Source: an uncultured Candidatus Saccharibacteria bacterium | GTDB taxonomy: Bacteria; Patescibacteriota; Minisyncoccia; Minisyncoccales; JANBVM01 | Length of the DNA: 57,340 nt | Assembly: GCA_964514375.1 (NCBI GenBank) | Contig: CAZEQH010000005.1 | Location: forward strand, 1 to 57,340 | Direction: 5' to 3' | Shown here: positions 5,234 to 40,300 of the stretch, in pieces | How the letters are laid out: each line of letters opens with the position of its first letter | Numbering within the stretch: position 1 is the first letter of the stretch | Position numbers and translations under genes: made by a program | The notes under the pieces: model-generated | Databases searched by the model: none | What the model saw: only the letters and a program-made list of their open reading frames with translations | Told to the model about the DNA's origin: nothing

Positions 5234-6304
5234 GTGAACTACCTAAAAGTAATCTATCGAAATCTAATAAGAGAGTATCTTATCCTGGTAAGAAAACCGG
5301 CCGGTTTGATTTTCGCCCTTTTCCTGCCCACCTTGATTCTAGTGGTCATCGCCACATCTTTTCCCGGAGAATTTCTCGATGTTAAACATGCCAAAGTACC
5401 CATTATGGACGATGGGAGCAACAGTCAATTCGTTTCAGAATTAAAGGAAAAAGTATCCTCCGAAGAATTAAGCGTTGTTATAGAACAGGGAGCTTTGAAC
5501 AAGCTTGAAGACTTGGTAGGAGATAAAAAATACTTACTGGGACTTTATCCCCATTTATCGGAGGGAAGATTTGAAAATGTTGTAGTGGTTGATAATTCTA
5601 ATCCTCTGGCCAGAGACGCTGTCTTGTCAAAGATTAAGTCCCGCCTAGGAGCGGAAGAAGATTATAATGTTGTCCAAAAGGATATATACGAGGCCGATTT
5701 AAGGTTTATTGATTATTTATTCCCTGGAATCATCGCCTTGGGAATAATGTTTTTCTGTTTGAGTTTGGCTTCTATTGGGGTGGTGAGAGAGAGAGTGTCA
5801 GGCACCCTGGAAAGGATTAGAAGTTCTTTTTTGCCATTGGGTGTTCTTTTGGTAAGCAAGTATATTACCTATATTGTTCTGGCTGCTATATCCGGGATAT
5901 TTATTCTGGTATGCGGGTACGTCTTCTTCAATATTCCTATCGCCGGTTCCATCTGGTTGGTAATAATTCTGGAAATTATCACCGCAACCCCCTTTATCGG
6001 ATTAGCCCTGATTACCTCCACTATCGCCAAGACAGAATTTGAGTCCCAGGTAATAGTGCTTTTTGTAAGCATTCCTTCTATTTTTATCTCGGGAGTGTTT
6101 TTCCCCATTGAATGTATGCCGGAATATGTAGCCCGGGTGGTCAAATATTTTCCTCTTTCTTTTTCTGTGGAAGCTCTAAGAGACGTAATTATCAGAGGTT
6201 TTAATATTTATGAAGTAGCGCCTGCCATCCTGGCTCTTTCTTTGTATTCCCTGGTCTTTTTTGTAACAGCTTTAGCTATGTTTAAAAAAAGAGATACTGA
6301 ATAA
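5234..6304 (+). CDS. ABC-2 type transporter permease
   Basis: ERVSGTLERI motif, SGVFFPIECMP, about 6 TM. Confidence 0.85.
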   Translation: MNYLKVIYRNLIREYLILVRKPAGLIFALFLPTLILVVIATSFPGEFLDVKHAKVPIMDDGSNSQFVSELKEKVSSEELSVVIEQGALNKLEDLVGDKKYLLGLYPHLSEGRFENVVVVDNSNPLARDAVLSKIKSRLGAEEDYNVVQKDIYEADLRFIDYLFPGIIALGIMFFCLSLASIGVVRERVSGTLERIRSSFLPLGVLLVSKYITYIVLAAISGIFILVCGYVFFNIPIAGSIWLVIILEIITATPFIGLALITSTIAKTEFESQVIVLFVSIPSIFISGVFFPIECMPEYVARVVKYFPLSFSVEALRDVIIRGFNIYEVAPAILALSLYSLVFFVTALAMFKKRDTE

Positions 6305-20287: not shown

Positions 20288-22012
20288 TTACTTTTTCTTT
20301 TCTACTTCTTTCCTGGCTTTTTCTATGAACTTTTTCAATTTAAACTCACCCATATCTTTTCCTTTTTTTCTGGCTCTGATGGTTTTTGCCTTCATTTCCC
20401 TGTCTCCCACCACCAGCAGGTAGGGGATTTTCTGTATTTCCCCCTGCCTGATTTTTTTGGAAACGGTTTCACCGCCGTCTTTCAGCTGACAGCGGAATCC
20501 GGCTGCCTTTAATTCCTCAGCTATGACTTTGGCGTACTTTTTATGGACAGAGCCCACCGGTATGGCCCACATCTGCTCTGGTGCCAGCCAGAGAGGCAGG
20601 TTGCCTGCATAATTCTCCAGCAGCACACCTATAAACCTTTCCAAGGAACCGAGCAGGGCCCTGTGTATCATGTAAGGTCTTTCCTTGTTACCTTTTTGGT
20701 TAACGAACGTCATGTCAAATCTTTCCGGCAGGTTGAAGTCTATCTGGATGGTGGTACACTGCCATTCCCGTCCGATGGAATCCTTTACCTTAATGTCTAT
20801 CTTCGGCCCGTAAAATGCGCCGCCTCCTTTGTCTACGTGATAATCCAGCTTGTCTTTCTTCAGCACGTATTCCAGGGCGTTGGTGGCTTTTCCCCAACCC
20901 TTATCAGTGCCCACGTATTTTTCCGGCTTGGTGGAAAGGTAAAGTTTGCATTCCTTGAAGCCGAAGGTGCGGAAGATTTTAAGAGCCTGCCTGAGCAGTT
21001 TTGCCGTTTCCTCATTGAGTTGGTCGGCCCGGCACCAGATGTGGGCATCATCCTGGGTAAACCCTCTCACCCTAGTCAGTCCGTGCAGGACGCCTGACTT
21101 TTCGTAGCGGTAGACCGTTCCGAATTCCGCGTACTTGATGGGCATATCCTTATAGCTCCTGATTTCCGACTTGTATACCTTGATGTGGAATGGACAGTTC
21201 ATGGGTTTTATCAGGTACTGCTCGTCTTCCACCTGCATAGGAGAATAGAGATTTTCTCTGTAAAAATCCCAATGTCCGGAAGTCTTCCAGATATCTATTT
21301 TCCCGATGTGCGGGCTCACTATCCACTGATATCCATGAGCACTCAGTTCTTCGTAAAGATAGTCTTTGATAATTTTAAGCAGGATAGCTCCCTTGGGATG
21401 CCAGACGTGGAGGCCGGCTCCGATTTCTTCGTCAGAAAGAAATAGTTTCAGTTTGCTCCCCAACAGGCGGTGGTCTCTCTTTTCTGCTTCTTCCTGCATT
21501 CTGAGGTAATTGTCCAGCTCTTTCTTTTTTGCAAAGGCTACTCCGTAAATCCTCGTAAGCATGGGGTTTTTCTCACTGCCCTTCCAGTAAGCTCCGGCCA
21601 GACGGGTCAACTTGAAGGAATCACTATCAATTTCTTTGCTGGATTTTATGTGAGGGCCGCGGCATAGGTCCGTGAAGTCTCCGGACTGGTAAATCGTCAC
21701 CTCCTTGTCTTCCAGGTCGCGGATCAGCTCTTTTTTATAGGATTGGTCCTTGAAAATTTCGGCAGCTTCCTTTTTGCTGACCTTTTTCTTTTTGAAGGCA
21801 ATGTCCTTTTTTATAAGTGCCTTCATCCGTTTCTCAATCCTGGGGAGGTCTGAGGGCTTCAAACTCACCGGCAGGTCGAAATCATAATAGAAGCCGTTTT
21901 CTATGGCCGGTCCCATCCCGATTTTTGCTTTTGGGAACATTTCCAGGACAGCATAGGCCATGAGATGGGATAAGGAATGGCGCATGCTGTCTATTTTTGC
22001 TTTTTTATCCAT
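20288..22012 (-). CDS. thrS: Threonine--tRNA ligase
   Basis: HSLSHL, DLCRGPH, RDHR, KPMNCP, RVRGFTQDDAH, IHRALLGSLERF. Confidence 0.98.
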   Translation of the reverse strand: MDKKAKIDSMRHSLSHLMAYAVLEMFPKAKIGMGPAIENGFYYDFDLPVSLKPSDLPRIEKRMKALIKKDIAFKKKKVSKKEAAEIFKDQSYKKELIRDLEDKEVTIYQSGDFTDLCRGPHIKSSKEIDSDSFKLTRLAGAYWKGSEKNPMLTRIYGVAFAKKKELDNYLRMQEEAEKRDHRLLGSKLKLFLSDEEIGAGLHVWHPKGAILLKIIKDYLYEELSAHGYQWIVSPHIGKIDIWKTSGHWDFYRENLYSPMQVEDEQYLIKPMNCPFHIKVYKSEIRSYKDMPIKYAEFGTVYRYEKSGVLHGLTRVRGFTQDDAHIWCRADQLNEETAKLLRQALKIFRTFGFKECKLYLSTKPEKYVGTDKGWGKATNALEYVLKKDKLDYHVDKGGGAFYGPKIDIKVKDSIGREWQCTTIQIDFNLPERFDMTFVNQKGNKERPYMIHRALLGSLERFIGVLLENYAGNLPLWLAPEQMWAIPVGSVHKKYAKVIAEELKAAGFRCQLKDGGETVSKKIRQGEIQKIPYLLVVGDREMKAKTIRARKKGKDMGEFKLKKFIEKARKEVEKKK

Positions 22013-22105
22013 AATTTTAATTTAATAAATTATTTTAGCACAGCTGAGTGCCTTTACCCAGCATGACAATTTTCAGGGAAAAATCATTTGTCCGGGTTTA
22101 CAAAC

Positions 22106-22126
22106 AAAAACCTCTTTTTCAAGAGG
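22106..22126 (-). terminator. Attenuator terminator in the thrS leader
   Basis: Minus strand CCTCTT-GAAA-AAGAGG-TTTTT. Confidence 0.8.
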
Positions 22127-22159
22127 CCAGTTTTTTCATTGGACAAACCAGCCCCTTAA

Positions 22160-22210
22160 CTAAGAGGTAGTGGTAGTAGTGATTGCGTTGGTCAATGTTG
22201 GTGCCTTCAT
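22160..22210 (-). CDS. Thr-rich leader peptide MKAPTLTNAITTTTTS
   Basis: 16 codons, 7 Thr with 5 consecutive; lies upstream of thrS within alternative hairpins. Confidence 0.85.
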   Translation of the reverse strand: MKAPTLTNAITTTTTS

Positions 22211-22221
22211 AATCTTTTTTA

Positions 22222-22249
22222 ATTCTAAAATATTGTATTTTTTTGTCAA
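22222..22249 (-). promoter_or_regulatory. Promoter of the thrS leader
   Basis: TTGACA-16-TAGAAT on the minus strand. Confidence 0.6.
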
Positions 22250-22257
22250 TAAAAATT

Positions 22258-25200
22258 CTAAGCCTCTATTATTTCTTCGATGTCTTCACAGATGAGCTTG
22301 GGCTCATCACTTTTCCTGTCCAGTCTTCCAGAAACGAAAACCACCTTGTTTTCTATAAAGGCCGCAGGGTTTTTTTCTAAAATACTGGGGAATACCACGA
22401 CCTCTATTCGGTCTGAAAGGTCTTCCAGATTTACAAAAAGCATGGCCCGTCCTGACTTGGTTATTATCTTCTTAATTTTTGATATGATGCCTCCCAGGGT
22501 TACCTGATGTCTGGCAGGAGGAGCGTCGGGGAGGTCGGCTATCTGGACGGTTCTTTTATGCAAAATATCCTTGTAGTCTTCCAGGGGATGGGAGCTGACG
22601 AAAAGACCCAACAGCTCCTTTTCCCAGGACAACTTTTCCTTTTTGGCGGCCGGCTTGATGGGTCTTAAATGAATCTTATGAGCAAAGTCGCTCCCACCGA
22701 AAAGATTCTTCTGGCCTGATTCTTTCACCTTCTGGCTTTCCCTGTTGCTCTGCAGTATTTCCTCCAGGTTGTAGAGGAGGAGATTCCTTTCAGCCAGCTT
22801 GTCGAAAACGCCCGCCTTAATCATGCTTTCCATGGACTTCTTGTTTAGATTCTTGGAGTCTATTCTGGAGATAAAGTCGTCAATGGATTTGAAGTGGCCG
22901 TTTTTCTTTCTCTCCGCTATGATATTTTCAACGATATTCTCTCCTACATTTTTAATCGCCAGCAGTCCGAATCTTATTTTCTTTTTCATGGGGATTACCG
23001 TGAAGTTGCGCCAGCTTTCATTGGCGTCTGGAGGGAGTATTTCTATACCCATCTTCTTACACTCTCCGATAAGAAAACCTATTCTTTCAATGTCAGACTT
23101 TTCCGAGGTTAATAGGGCGGCCATAAAGGAAACAGGGTAATGGGATTTCAAGTAAGCTGTTTGATAGGCGATAATGGCATAGGCACAGCTGTGGCTCCTG
23201 TTGAATCCGTAGCTGGCAAAAGGCAAAATCCACTGCCATATCTTATTGGCTACAGAATCTGTGATGCCGTTTTCTCTCATTCCCTTTATCAGTTTTTCTT
23301 TCTGGTCCATCAGAAGTTCCTTTATTTTCTTCCCTACGGCTTTTCTCAGAATGTCAGCTTCAGCTAAGCTGAAACCCGCTATTTCCCGGGCGATGAGCAT
23401 CAGGTCTTCCTGATAAACCGGCAATCCATATGTCTTTTTTAGAATTTTTTCCAGTTTCGGATGGATGTACTCCACTTTTTCTTTTCCTTTTTTCCGGTTT
23501 ATGTACGAAGGAATCAGCGACATGGGTCCCGGCCGATAGAGAGCCACCATGGCCACGATGTCTTCGAACTCATTGGGCTTAAGCTGTTTCAGATAGCGCT
23601 GAAATCCTCCGGACTCCATCTGAAATACCCCTACGGTATTTCCCTTTTGCAGAAGCTTGTATGTTCTTAGGTCGTTTAAAGGCAGGTTTTCTATGTCCAC
23701 CTTCTTTTTCTTTGTGGCGTATATTCTGGCCAGGGTGTCCTCAATAATAGTTAGGTTTTTTAGGCCGAGAAAATCCATTTTCAGCAGCCCGATATCTTCC
23801 ACGGCATGCATTTCATATTGGGTTACTATACTGTTGTCATCTTGGGTAGGATGTTGTAGAGGCACGATAGTATCAAGCGGCTCCTTGGACATGACTACTC
23901 CGCAGGCGTGGGTAGATGCGTGCCTGGCCACACCCTCCATTTTCTTTGCAAAATCTATCAATTTTCCGGCCTGCTGGTCTGTTTCGTAGAGCTGCCTGAA
24001 TTCAGGCACCTTAGCCAGGGCTTCGTCCAAAGTGTATCCGAAGGGAATCATCTTGGCCACCCTGTCGCAGAAGCTGTAGGGCATGGCTAGTGCTCTTCCC
24101 ACGTCCCTGACTGCCGCTCTGGCCGCCATGGTTCCAAAGGTGATAATTTGCGCCACCCGGTCCCTCCCGTATTTGTTGGCTACGTATTCAATGACTTCAT
24201 CTCTTCTCCTGTCCGTGAAATCCAGGTCGATATCAGGCATTGATATCCTAGAAGGATTAAGGAATCTTTCAAACAGTAGGTTATATTTCAGCGGGTCTAT
24301 ACTGGTAATGCCCAGCAGGTATGAAACCAGAGAGCCTCCAACCGAGCCGCGTCCCGGTCCTACCACAATCCTCTGTTCCTTGGCCCAATTAACGAAATCC
24401 TGCACTATCAGAAAGTAGGAGGAAAATCCCATCTTTTTAATCATTTCCAATTCGTAATCCAGCCGTTCCTGTACTTCCTTGCCGGAAAAAGCTCCGAATT
24501 TTTTATTCAGCCCTTTCAGGCATAACTCTCTCAAATATTCATCTTCGGTTTTGTTGTCCGGTGTTTCGAAATAAGGAATTTTTGTTTTTCCGAGTACGAA
24601 CTCAAAATTACACATCTCTACTATCTTCTGAGTATTTTCTATAGCTTCGGGTACATCCCGGAAAGCTTCTATCATTTCTTCGGGCGACCTCAGTGAAAAA
24701 TCATCCGATTTCATGGTTATTCTTTCTGGGTCGTTGGGGTCAGCCCCCGTGTTTATCAGCATCAGCACATCCTGTGCTTCGGCATCTTCGTGCCTTAAAT
24801 AGTGAGAATCGTTTGTGGCTACCAGGGGAATATCGAGTTCTTTAGAAAACTTTATCAGTTGTTCATTAACTATTGCCTGCTCCTTAATGTGGGGATGGTG
24901 CTGCAGCTCCAGATAGAAGTTGCCTTTCCCTAAAATCTTTTGATATTTGAGAGCGGTCTTCTTAGCCTCCTCAATCTTACCTTTTAGTATCATCCGGGGT
25001 ACTTTTCCCGCAATGCAAGCCGATAGACCTATGAGGCCTGAAGCGTGTTTCTGTAGGAGCTCCTCGTCAATCCTGGGTTTATAATAAAATCCTTCCAGAT
25101 GTGCTTTGGTCAGAAGCTTAACAAGATTCTTATATCCCTCCTGATTCTTAGCCAAAAGAACCAGGTGATACCTGGCGTTGTCGATATTTGGCCTTTTTTG

Positions 25201-25428
25201 TTCCATTCCTTCGTAGGCCACGTACATTTCACAACCTATAATCGGCTTTATTCCCTTTTTTTTCGCTTTCTTGTAAAATTCTATGGCACCGTACAGGGCG
25301 CCGTGGTCGGTCAGGGCGAGAGAATCCATACCCAGTTCTTTGGCATATTCCAAAAGGTCATCTATCTTAGATAGCCCATCCAGTAAAGAATAGTGTGAGT
25401 GAACGTGTAGGTGAGTAAACTTTGACAT
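22258..25428 (-). CDS. dnaE: DNA polymerase III alpha subunit
   Basis: PHP HLHVHSHYSLLDG, GPGRGS, MPDIDLDF, LLKMDFLGL, YGFNRSH. Confidence 0.98.
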   Translation of the reverse strand: MSKFTHLHVHSHYSLLDGLSKIDDLLEYAKELGMDSLALTDHGALYGAIEFYKKAKKKGIKPIIGCEMYVAYEGMEQKRPNIDNARYHLVLLAKNQEGYKNLVKLLTKAHLEGFYYKPRIDEELLQKHASGLIGLSACIAGKVPRMILKGKIEEAKKTALKYQKILGKGNFYLELQHHPHIKEQAIVNEQLIKFSKELDIPLVATNDSHYLRHEDAEAQDVLMLINTGADPNDPERITMKSDDFSLRSPEEMIEAFRDVPEAIENTQKIVEMCNFEFVLGKTKIPYFETPDNKTEDEYLRELCLKGLNKKFGAFSGKEVQERLDYELEMIKKMGFSSYFLIVQDFVNWAKEQRIVVGPGRGSVGGSLVSYLLGITSIDPLKYNLLFERFLNPSRISMPDIDLDFTDRRRDEVIEYVANKYGRDRVAQIITFGTMAARAAVRDVGRALAMPYSFCDRVAKMIPFGYTLDEALAKVPEFRQLYETDQQAGKLIDFAKKMEGVARHASTHACGVVMSKEPLDTIVPLQHPTQDDNSIVTQYEMHAVEDIGLLKMDFLGLKNLTIIEDTLARIYATKKKKVDIENLPLNDLRTYKLLQKGNTVGVFQMESGGFQRYLKQLKPNEFEDIVAMVALYRPGPMSLIPSYINRKKGKEKVEYIHPKLEKILKKTYGLPVYQEDLMLIAREIAGFSLAEADILRKAVGKKIKELLMDQKEKLIKGMRENGITDSVANKIWQWILPFASYGFNRSHSCAYAIIAYQTAYLKSHYPVSFMAALLTSEKSDIERIGFLIGECKKMGIEILPPDANESWRNFTVIPMKKKIRFGLLAIKNVGENIVENIIAERKKNGHFKSIDDFISRIDSKNLNKKSMESMIKAGVFDKLAERNLLLYNLEEILQSNRESQKVKESGQKNLFGGSDFAHKIHLRPIKPAAKKEKLSWEKELLGLFVSSHPLEDYKDILHKRTVQIADLPDAPPARHQVTLGGIISKIKKIITKSGRAMLFVNLEDLSDRIEVVVFPSILEKNPAAFIENKVVFVSGRLDRKSDEPKLICEDIEEIIEA

Positions 25429-28741: not shown

Positions 28742-29380
28742 ATGTTAATGATAAGATTATTCCGTGTAGGAAAAAGGAATCAGCCGATTTTTAAGATAGT
28801 AGTTACGGAAAAAAGGAACTCTCCGAAGAGAGGGCGTTTTACTGAGGAAATCGGTTTTGTAAACCCTTTAACCAAGGAAAAGAAAATAAATAAAGAGAGA
28901 GCAAGTTACTGGCTGTCGGTGGGGGCTCAGCCTTCAGCTACGGTATATAATCTTTTGATAGATGAGAAAATTATAAAGGGACAGAAAAAGAGAAAGCACG
29001 GAAAATCCAAGAAGAAAGTTTCTGCTGAAACTTCAGAAGAACAGGAAGTTAAAGCTGGAGCTGCAGAAGGGGAACAGGCAAAGGAGAAATCCAAGGAAGA
29101 AATTAAGGAGGAAGCGAAGGAAAAAACTCCCGAGGAAAAACCGGAAACCCCTATCAAGGAAGAGGAAAAAGAGCCCCAGGAGAAGGCTCAGGGACCAGAG
29201 CAGGAAAAAGAATCTGGCGCAGAACCAAAAGAAAAAAAAGAAACAGTTGAGGATAATAAAGAGATTGAAGCCCCCGAGAAGAAAGAAGAAATAGAGGCGC
29301 CGGAAAAAGGAGAAGAAAAAAGAGAAGAAAAAAGAGAAGAAGAACCTTCTGGAGAACGGGAAAATATAGAGGAAAAATAA
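28742..29380 (+). CDS. rpsP: 30S ribosomal protein S16 with long Glu/Lys-rich tail
   Basis: IRLFRVGKRNQP, GRFTEEIG, WLSVGAQPS. Confidence 0.93.
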   Translation: MLMIRLFRVGKRNQPIFKIVVTEKRNSPKRGRFTEEIGFVNPLTKEKKINKERASYWLSVGAQPSATVYNLLIDEKIIKGQKKRKHGKSKKKVSAETSEEQEVKAGAAEGEQAKEKSKEEIKEEAKEKTPEEKPETPIKEEEKEPQEKAQGPEQEKESGAEPKEKKETVEDNKEIEAPEKKEEIEAPEKGEEKREEKREEEPSGERENIEEK

Positions 29381-29479: not shown

Positions 29480-29637
29480 ATGGCCGAATTTTACTTACCA
29501 TTGTTATTTTTCTATTTTTTACCAAGAGGCCTTTTCGTCACTGCCACTACCTCTTCTTAGTGAGGTTGGTTTGTAGTTTAAATAAAAAAGTATATAACAC
29601 TGAAAAACAAACCAACCTCTCTGCGAAGAGGTTTTTT
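29480..29637 (+). promoter_or_regulatory. Attenuator-like leader (26-aa ORF 29480-29560 plus alternative hairpins), homologous to the thrS leader
   Basis: ORF ends GTC ACT GCC ACT ACC TCT TCT TAG; 13-bp 2:3 helix; AACCTCT/AGAGGTT terminator plus T tract. Confidence 0.7.
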
Positions 29638-29675: not shown

Positions 29676-29915
29676 ATGGAAAGCGAATTGGTATCAGTTA
29701 AGGATTTATTAATAGGAAGAGCCATTGTCGATATAAAGGAAATATCAGATAACCAGGGATGCAATATTATTAAATTTTGCCTGGATAATAACAGTGTCCT
29801 GGAGATGGGCATGAAAGACGGGATAAGAGACAACGGTATTTATCTGTACTCCTATTTATCTTTGGACGGCCGGGAAATATATAATGACGTTGACGGCCAA
29901 ATCAGCTCCTTCTAA
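29676..29915 (+). CDS. Hypothetical protein (79 aa)
   Basis: ORF with GAGGTG SD; followed by terminator 29927-29947. Confidence 0.6.
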   Translation: MESELVSVKDLLIGRAIVDIKEISDNQGCNIIKFCLDNNSVLEMGMKDGIRDNGIYLYSYLSLDGREIYNDVDGQISSF

Positions 29916-30050
29916 AGAATAATATTAAGGCCTTTCAGGCCTTTTTTATTACCTAATTCACTGTTTGGGCGGATGCCGAAGAACTCAGCCTGTTTCTCCC
30001 GTCGGGCGGGAGCGTAGTCGTTTATCCTGAACGAAGTCGAAGGAAATCCG

Positions 30051-30078
30051 TTGACAAATCATACTAAAATGTTATAAT
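30051..30078 (+). promoter_or_regulatory. Sigma70 promoter with extended -10
   Basis: TTGACA-16-TATAAT with TGn. Confidence 0.75.
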
Positions 30079-30313
30079 ATTAATAGTCGCGACTGGACAG
30101 AATCAAATAAAGATTCCCTTTCCTACACCATTCACGTAATGGTAGGGAAAGGGATGGAGGAGGGAGCACTTTTTATTACAAAATATAATCTCCTCCATCC
30201 CTTTCCCTATAGAGGGAATTGTTCTTTATAAGGAAAAAAGGGAAGAACCCTCGGATGGTGTAATTTGTTCGCTGAAAAAGAGAGGATAAATTACACCATC
30301 TGAGGTAAACTAG

Positions 30314-40100: not shown

Positions 40101-40129
40101 TTGACACGTTTTGAGGGAAAGTATATACT
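40101..40129 (+). promoter_or_regulatory. Promoter of rplJL
   Basis: TTGACA-17-TATACT. Confidence 0.8.
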
Positions 40130-40140
40130 TTATTATTATT

Positions 40141-40224
40141 CCACAGACAGCAGGCAGCTTTAAAAAGCGTAAACACTCCTGCCGAGGAAACTTAAAAGTT
40201 TATTTTTTTGTTTTTTGTCTGTGG
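40141..40224 (+). promoter_or_regulatory. L10 leader RNA
   Basis: AGACAGCAGG...CCTGCCGAGG core, closing CCACAGACA/TGTCTGTGG; upstream of rplJ. Confidence 0.8.
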
Positions 40225-40300
40225 TATTCCACAGATTTTTATTTTTCCCATAGAGAAATTTCTGTTCAATATTAGTAGATATCCGAATTATTATATTAGT

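Follow-up and report, generated by a model that had tools for sequence, protein, structure and literature searches.

How might a bacterium of the Patescibacteria adjust the production of an aminoacyl-tRNA synthetase to the supply of the corresponding charged tRNA? Very little is known of gene regulation in these mostly uncultured organisms, also called the candidate phyla radiation (CPR), and the question is raised by a short stretch ahead of thrS, the gene for threonyl-tRNA synthetase (ThrRS), in a contig of 57,340 nucleotides (CAZEQH010000005.1, here called the window) from an uncultured Candidatus Saccharibacteria bacterium. On the minus strand of the window, positions 22106-22249 hold, in order, a promoter, a 16-codon open reading frame (ORF), the arms of three helices (1:2, 2:3 and 3:4) and a U tract, followed by thrS. 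A preliminary description had read this arrangement as a threonine leader-peptide attenuator with the logic of Escherichia coli thrL and pheM. Comparison with relatives supports that interpretation, through linkage to thrS, covariation, free wobble positions in the threonine codons and folds computed under ribosome masking. We consider it very probable that the leader is a ribosome-mediated transcription attenuator, which would read the supply of charged tRNA-Thr and set the level of read-through into thrS; its most likely effect would be to raise synthetase output when charged tRNA-Thr is short.

A threonine-run leader between dnaE and thrS

The promoter, the near-leaderless ORF and the five Thr codons given in the preliminary description are all present on the minus strand. 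The promoter (P1) joins a -35 hexamer TTGACA (22244-22249) to a -10 hexamer TAGAAT (22222-22227) over a 16-nt spacer. It was recognized by reading the sequence and by a promoter scan, in which it ranked first among the promoter-like sites of the 6 kb scanned, with 11 of 12 matches. The ORF, MKAPTLTNAITTTTTS, occupies 22160-22210 and comprises 16 codons and a TAG stop codon (22162-22160). Its ATG at 22210 lies 11 nt past the -10 hexamer and has no Shine-Dalgarno sequence. The putative regulatory run consists of five consecutive Thr codons, ACT ACT ACC ACT ACC (22166-22180); (ACN)5 occurs once in the window, both strands counted, where composition would lead one to expect 0.015 occurrences.

The pairing regions begin within the ORF. 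Region 1 (ACCUCUU, 22162-22168) runs from the final Thr codon through the Ser codon to the first stop-codon base, and can pair with either region 2 or region 4. Region 2 (AAGGGGCUGGUUU, 22145-22157) is the 5′ arm of the predicted antiterminator, whereas region 3 (AAACUGGCCUCUU, 22121-22133) serves both as the antiterminator 3′ arm and as the 5′ arm of the terminator, which is completed by region 4 (AAGAGG, 22111-22116) and by the U tract (22106-22110). Folding underlies the assignment of all four regions, covariation that of regions 2 and 3, and a terminator scan that of regions 3 and 4 and of the U tract; the scan independently recovered the terminator CCTCTT-GAAA-AAGAGG-TTTTT at 22126-22106.

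The gene below the terminator was correctly named: thrS (20288-22012, minus strand; 574 amino acids) carries the Pfam domains tRNA_SAD, tRNA-synt_2b and HGTP_anticodon. Its ATG (22012) lies 93 nt from the U tract, against a distance of about 95 nt given before. Upstream, on the same strand, the neighbour is dnaE (DNA polymerase III alpha, assigned by Pfam; 22258-25428), for which neither inspection of the sequence nor the terminator scan found a terminator of its own ahead of the cassette. As a separate observation, the 574-residue ThrRS of the window starts at the SAD/editing region, and Pfam shows no N-terminal TGS domain.

Each of the three helices proposed earlier can fold, with energies of -9.2 kcal/mol for 1:2, -15.9 kcal/mol for 2:3 and -9.4 kcal/mol for 3:4, although helix 2:3 turned out to be 13 bp long rather than the 11 bp claimed. 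This antiterminator helix takes up the 5′ arm of the terminator and competes with 3:4. The three-helix scheme had been put forward without a further, nested fold. The CCUCUU of region 1 recurs at the 3′ side of region 3, and region 2 opens with a sequence similar to region 4; a hairpin combining 1:4 and 2:3 can therefore form that abuts the U tract, and this is the minimum-free-energy fold of the whole leader (-34.2 kcal/mol). Compared with dinucleotide shuffles, the folding of the leader has z = -3.2.

We computed how the position of a ribosome on the leader would alter these folds. Masking covered the mRNA from its 5′ terminus up to a point 11, 13 or 15 nt beyond the first A-site base, ribosome protection downstream of the A site being assumed to be 11-15 nt, and the probability that region 4 is paired was calculated. 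In the window, this probability is 0.98 for the free RNA and stays at 0.98 while the A site moves along the codons as far as Ile-10; it drops to 0.07-0.15 once Thr codons 2-5 occupy the A site (the exact codons vary with the footprint), and is 0.93-0.99 on the Ser codon and 0.99 on the stop codon. Region 4 is freed, in other words, only with the A site on Thr codons and is paired elsewhere at P ≥ 0.93. Across 37 leaders of the family described below, 59 of the 60 A-site positions with P < 0.5 were Thr codons, which make up 32% of the leader codons, and every one of the 37 had its minimum at a Thr codon. The geometry predicted by this equilibrium model fits attenuation, in that a ribosome stalled on the Thr codons would mask region 1 alone and one that has reached the stop codon would mask region 2.

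The same structure would result if the ribosome slowed for whatever reason within the right window of three to four codons, and the element might accordingly sense general translation capacity, through ribosome arrival or speed as in ermC-type systems, and not Thr-tRNA. We regard this as highly unlikely, given that Thr codons fill that window in all but one of the 60 cases, that the runs reach nine Thr codons and that the gene regulated is the synthetase specific for threonine.

For an attenuator that responds to charged tRNA-Thr, we propose the following course of events. The P1 transcript would start at the leader AUG itself or a few bases ahead of it, and a ribosome would load without a Shine-Dalgarno sequence and trail the polymerase closely. 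With Thr-tRNA plentiful, this ribosome would run on to the stop codon, located in the loop that separates regions 1 and 2, and would there cover region 2; helix 3:4 (CCUCUU-GAAA-AAGAGG plus U5) would then form and transcription would end at about 22106. With Thr-tRNA scarce, the ribosome would stall with its A site in the five-Thr run, covering region 1 and leaving region 2 free, so that 2:3 would form, region 4 would remain single-stranded and the polymerase would continue into thrS. On RNA that carries no ribosome, for example after read-through from dnaE, either 1:2 plus 3:4 or the nested 1:4 plus 2:3 fold would form. Both of these ribosome-free folds would terminate at the U tract, and the long nested one would also stop read-through from dnaE. 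The scheme departs from the trp paradigm in that the antiterminator alone would not block termination unless region 1 is masked. If it is true, these ultra-small cells would couple the lead ribosome, by leaderless initiation, tightly to RNA polymerase.

Recurrence of the leader among relatives

A ThrRS-based search restricted to one genome per species yielded 80 loci. The closest, with ThrRS 47-66% identical, carry Patescibacteria or CPR titles (Parcubacteria, Paceibacterota, Nealsonbacteria and metagenome-assembled genomes (MAGs) automatically labelled 'Saccharibacteria'); the Patescibacteria relatives overall are 40-70% identical to the ThrRS of the window, and the farther loci come from further phyla, Zixibacteria and Omnitrophota among them. 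Synteny of dnaE and thrS was seen in 40 of the 80 loci, 18 of which have a gap of less than 60 nt between the two genes, where the leader would not fit. Four loci with dnaE-thrS gaps of 196-596 nt (L002, L010, L013 and L018) each contain the same cassette as the window: TTGACA-16-TAnAAT, an ATG a few bases on, a Thr-run ORF, nested hairpins and, ahead of a U tract, the terminator CCUCUU/AAGAGG. One of them, L013, has a longer spacer and was missed by a scan for Thr runs in the 450-500 nt upstream of the ThrRS loci.

That scan flagged two further loci, L034 and L062, which lack a terminator and gave no match to the covariance model (R1) that we built from the leader family; they were taken as relics or chance. 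Upstream of thrS, both hold sequences that resemble the end of a leader, without a stop codon, terminator or model match (ACC ACC ACC TCC TTC at about 2690-2720 of L034, and ACC ACA ACT TCT TTT TCC at about 2725-2790 of L062). These may be decayed remnants of the cassette. Elsewhere, the stop codon TGA of dnaE lies within the -35 hexamer of the leader promoter or directly borders it (GCTTGACAA), as in L010 (about 2720-2735), L083, L085 and others, and the cassette is thus packed directly against dnaE.

The family was extended with two search patterns that left the downstream gene unconstrained. Pattern 1 comprised (ACN)4, 25-55 nt, CCTCTT, 3-6 nt and AAGAGGTTTT. It gave 14 matches in 596 Gb of genomes, 11 of which are short Thr-run ORFs in Patescibacteria (one of them in a Gracilibacteria MAG), and nine of these have thrS directly downstream. 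One match, L085, runs off its locus, and its leader region matches that of L100, which has thrS; the sole exception to thrS linkage among the genome matches is L087, described below. The three remaining matches are chance ends of longer proteins. In metagenomes, the same pattern gave 38 matches, with 31 leader-like sequences, 29 of them followed by thrS and two on contigs too short to tell, and seven chance matches in Thr-rich proteins. In genomes and metagenomes combined, thrS lies directly downstream in 38 of 42 leader-like matches.

Pattern 2, (ACN)4-ACC-TCT-TTT-TAG, describes the end of the leader ORF only. All seven of its genome matches are Patescibacteria leaders: four new loci (L136-L139) with variant terminators, each a hairpin and U tract, and with thrS in four of four, together with L089 and L092, whose link to thrS had already been found, and L085. 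The total came to 41 distinct leaders, and a terminator (hairpin and U tract) is present in all members of the family. Among leader-like short ORFs with at least four identical residues and a terminator, the run was Thr in 40 of 40 cases in the roughly 1.1 Mb examined; no analogous leader with a run of another amino acid was found in this DNA, which is biased toward thrS loci.

Within the 41 distinct leaders, the longest Thr run ranges from 3 to 9 codons, with a median of 5. The Thr codons of the family are ACA (81), ACC (55), ACT (53) and ACG (3); the AC is invariant and the third base free, a sign of selection on the codons. The final Thr codon is ACC in 32 of 41 leaders, a bias explained by its belonging to region 1. 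Residues ahead of the run are poorly conserved, one to seven codons follow it, and the tail is mostly SF*, that is, translated CCUCUUUUUAG. A motif K-[LF]-N stands just ahead of the Thr run in L082, L083, L092, L094, L098, L102, L109, L119 and others (for example LRKFNITTTTTSF and QKLNTTTTTSF); it may come from common descent, from a constraint towards A-rich RNA or from an effect of the nascent peptide.

The promoter recurs together with the ORF. An exact TTGACA stands 16-18 nt from a good -10 hexamer in 27 of 37 distinct leaders, and the ATG lies 4-16 nt past the -10 across the family (median 9). Transcription normally starts about 6-8 nt past the -10, and this spacing therefore implies a thrS leader transcript that is leaderless or nearly so, where the distance to the start site is one that we infer. 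Leader peptides of this leaderless kind have been documented in Streptomyces (PMC8079986).

The recurrence of these parts bears on a simpler account, in which the hairpin and U tract are a plain intrinsic terminator of dnaE and the Thr ORF and promoter hexamers are accidents of an AT-rich spacer. The minimum-free-energy fold is indeed a single long hairpin at the U tract, dnaE is without any other terminator, and promoter-like sites over the 6 kb scanned are no commoner than in shuffles. However, an in-frame run of at least three Thr codons recurs in 41 distinct sequences with free wobble, as do an ATG 4-16 nt past TTGACA/TAnAAT and a stop codon inside regions 1-2. Moreover, the 18 relatives in which dnaE abuts thrS have no terminator there, and copies of the element follow genes other than dnaE, namely rpsP in the window and a tRNA gene in L087. 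An accidental ORF beside a dnaE terminator is thus exceedingly improbable. The element may well stop dnaE transcripts in addition, a role that alone leaves the ORF unexplained.

Support for the RNA structure comes from the changes among relatives. In a MAFFT alignment of 36 leaders that was fitted to no structure (A2), with pairs counted for the nested structure, 89% of cells are paired. Helix 2:3 shows double-sided, compensatory changes at 12 of 13 variable pairs. The covariation score of this alignment is 0.314, compared with 0.182 ± 0.011 in shuffles (0 of 500 reach 0.314), and is at most 0.164 once the 3′ partners are slid out of register. In a model-fitted alignment (A4), which was cleared of opposite-strand shadow matches of the symmetric hairpin, 90.9% of cells are paired and double changes occur at 12 of 16 pairs. 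Region 1 pairs with region 4 in 96-98% of cells, though it lay outside the first search pattern; helix 1:4 is almost invariant, and covariation therefore neither supports nor contradicts it. RNAalifold recovered only part of 2:3 on the first alignment of 13 sequences and only the terminator on 36 sequences, and for this reason the nested structure was taken from per-sequence folds.

The loop of helix 2:3 varies among relatives in both sequence and length, and no conserved anticodon-like or T-box loop was seen in it. Such variation is hard to reconcile with RNA sensing that needs no translation, in which ThrRS would bind a mimic of tRNA-Thr, or uncharged tRNA-Thr would bind the ACN repeats as it binds a specifier. 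thrS is regulated in these ways in E. coli and Bacillus, and ACN repeats are complementary to the anticodons of tRNA-Thr. Yet no T-box or other Rfam family matched the thrS leader or 16 relatives, and a start codon and a nearby stop codon invariably share the frame of the ACN run, an arrangement that an RNA-only sensor does not need. Direct sensing by the RNA is, in our judgement, exceedingly unlikely.

Between the terminator and thrS, we identified a candidate second promoter (P2), an extended -10 element, TGCTAAAAT, at 22032-22040 on the minus strand, 19 nt before the thrS ATG. The motif TGnTAnnnT is present in 14 of 32 terminator-to-thrS spacers, compared with 3.6 ± 1.6 in shuffles (0 of 500 reach 14), and in 8 of those 14 spacers it lies 16-22 nt from the thrS ATG. 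The closest relative, L084, keeps the motif while the rest of its spacer differs. P2 is probably a second promoter, which would give basal expression of the essential thrS. With such a promoter in place, only part of thrS transcription would pass through the attenuator, as an inducible addition to the basal level. The earlier phrase 'controlling thrS' may therefore hold only in part, given a probable promoter below the attenuator.

If P2 alone drove thrS, the ORF could instead encode a functional Thr-rich micropeptide, with the hairpin ending its small transcript. Besides the probable promoter between terminator and thrS, this account can draw on the existence of trans-acting leader peptides, an example being peTrpL of Sinorhizobium (PMC7298713). 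The peptide, however, is unconserved save for the Thr run and the tail SF*, which is dictated by region 1, and the part that is conserved and covaries is the RNA. A stand-alone peptide gene would also leave the linkage to thrS and the alternative pairing of region 3 unexplained, and we find this account very unlikely.

A second copy of the element and the case for attenuation

The window contains a second, paralogous attenuator, on the plus strand between rpsP and khpA/trmD. Model R1 matches it at 29540-29636 (53.6 bits, E about 1e-8). Its RNA (29540-29637) takes the nested 1:4 plus 2:3 fold, with z = -4.3, and has the terminator CCTCTC-TGCG-AAGAGG-TTTTTT; its leader ORF, MAEFYLPLLFFYFLPRGLFVTATTSS, lies at 29480-29560. 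This copy is kept in L133, L134 and L135, and the homologous leader of L134 ends ...EGTTTTSF*.

Downstream of the second attenuator is an orphan gene of 79 amino acids (29676-29915, plus strand) with the Shine-Dalgarno sequence AGAGGTGA. Its protein matches no Pfam family. Only two homologues, of 72% and 45% identity, were found in the databases searched, one by a word-indexed search and the other by exhaustive phmmer; both occupy the same rpsP-to-khpA position, each behind the same attenuator. AlphaFold models the orphan protein as a small all-beta domain (pLDDT 83), for which a Foldseek comparison with the PDB returned no significant match (best E = 0.38). In L087, an attenuator of the same type (6114-6234, minus strand; leader MNIRYFLKDITITTTTTFF) lies downstream of a tRNA gene and precedes an unrelated orphan ORF of 68 amino acids, followed by ftsZ. 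No homologues of this ORF were found, and it has no similarity to the 79-residue protein.

These copies raise the possibility that the attenuator defines a small Thr-tRNA-responsive regulon in Patescibacteria, comprising thrS, the all-beta orphan of 79-84 residues (in at least three genomes) and the orphan of L087. We offer this tentatively, with clearly less than even confidence. If it is true that the orphans are induced by threonine shortage, they could be factors in ThrRS or tRNA-Thr homeostasis or in scavenging threonine from the host, and the gene behind the second copy would be a candidate threonine-starvation protein.

Other features near the second copy and farther along the window were recorded. 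Ribosomal protein S16, encoded by rpsP at 28742-29380 (plus strand), is 212 amino acids long with the Pfam S16 domain in residues 8-65 only; the remainder is a long Lys/Glu-rich C-terminal extension. The roughly 400 nt past the orphan gene (29916-30313) contain no ORF longer than 31 amino acids on either strand and no Rfam match at the gathering threshold. At 40123-40252 (plus strand), upstream of an rplJ-like ORF, the Rfam family L10_leader matches with 68.2 bits, above its gathering threshold, making it a second known cis-regulatory RNA of the window.

Several points weigh against the leader being a threonine attenuator that governs thrS. We infer from sequence its transcription start, its translation, its 3′ end with termination at 22106 and its response to threonine. 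There is no Shine-Dalgarno sequence at the leader AUG, and the model therefore depends on leaderless initiation. Relief of the terminator is partial in many members of the family, where the mean probability that region 4 is paired is 0.49 mid-run; equilibrium folding thus has to be joined by a kinetic argument. There is also some circularity in the masking test, as the spacing from Thr run to terminator was set by the search pattern. P2, lying below the terminator, would bypass the attenuator, and control of thrS would therefore possibly be only partial. Nor is the link to thrS exclusive, as copies precede the unrelated orphan genes of the window (29480-29637) and of L087. Finally, the cassette is missing from most ThrRS relatives, including the 18 loci with dnaE less than 60 nt from thrS, and is dispensable in that sense. 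The preliminary description had suggested that thrS upstream regions be collected from Patescibacteria; Thr-run ORFs and a covarying helix 2:3 were found there, with the cassette patchy in its distribution and helix 1:4 barely variable.

With these points taken into account, we retain the attenuator as the reading that the linkage, the wobble pattern, the covariation and the masking folds jointly favour. It would constitute a conserved and interpretable circuit, one that senses how far the tRNA for a single amino acid is charged and acts on an essential gene of the translation machinery. In practical terms, R1 could be used to annotate short leader ORFs that are otherwise called hypothetical proteins.

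Relation to known attenuators and thrS controls

A scan of the whole window at Rfam gathering thresholds returned only tRNAs and the L10 leader. A permissive scan of the locus returned only a sub-threshold hit to Thr_leader (RF00506; 16.6 bits against a gathering threshold of 55, E = 1.2), which places the element outside that family. No T-box match was found in the window, at the locus (E up to 10) or in 16 related thrS loci that lack the cassette.

In its logic, the element resembles E. coli thrL, which has a short Thr-rich ORF, alternative 1:2, 2:3 and 3:4 helices and an intrinsic terminator, and which reads charged tRNA-Thr through stalling. thrL controls the biosynthetic genes thrABC, carries Ile codons too and is translated from a Shine-Dalgarno sequence. 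Here, by contrast, the target is a synthetase gene, the leader is near-leaderless, Thr codons alone are enriched, and region 1 has region 4 as a second partner. Further leader-peptide attenuators, such as trpL and hisL, are known from Proteobacteria.

Other bacteria control thrS by different means. The T-boxes of Bacillus thrS and thrZ likewise take in the charging of tRNA-Thr and act through a terminator and antiterminator upstream of thrS; unlike the present element, they contain no ORF and bind the uncharged tRNA themselves. In E. coli, ThrRS binds mimics of the anticodon arm at the ribosome-binding site of its own mRNA, exerting translational feedback. The two systems would share feedback control of thrS through a 5′ leader, but in the present family the hairpin loops are unconserved and the structure lies, in the window, 93 nt upstream of the thrS start. 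The spacers between terminator and thrS are AT-rich, 22-457 nt long and without a shared hairpin, although no dedicated operator model was run on them.

Closer parallels come from leader peptides on synthetase genes. E. coli pheM-pheST, as cited in PMC1262725, is a leader-peptide attenuator with cognate codons on a synthetase operon; it differs in its Phe codons, its occurrence in Gammaproteobacteria and its unrelated sequence. In Streptomyces, leaderless short ORFs lie upstream of the synthetase genes leuS, trpS and alaS (PMC1262725; PMC8079986). For Streptomyces lividans, a 'thrL' has been proposed ahead of thrS, with only two Thr codons, no U tract and termination called unclear (PMC8079986), and a leader peptide on thrS is hence not wholly unprecedented. 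The present family differs from it by its unbroken runs of 3-9 Thr codons, by a terminator of the canonical form and by support from covariation, and is unrelated in lineage and sequence. In Bacillus, comparative analysis placed a His leader peptide upstream of hisS paralogues (PMC2965389). It is, as the present leader would be, an attenuator on a gene of a synthetase family outside Proteobacteria and Actinobacteria; it differs in using His codons, in occurring in Firmicutes and in replacing a T-box.

The preliminary description knew of no such element in this lineage, and the searchable literature likewise yielded no earlier account of a leader peptide, attenuation or a T-box in CPR, Patescibacteria or Parcubacteria, although its coverage is incomplete and absence there is not proof. 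The element thus appears to apply a known principle, leader-peptide attenuation, in a lineage and on a gene for which we found no clear prior description. The control of synthetases by leader peptides, as in pheST, trpS, leuS and the hisS paralogues, would in this way extend to thrS with a clear example.

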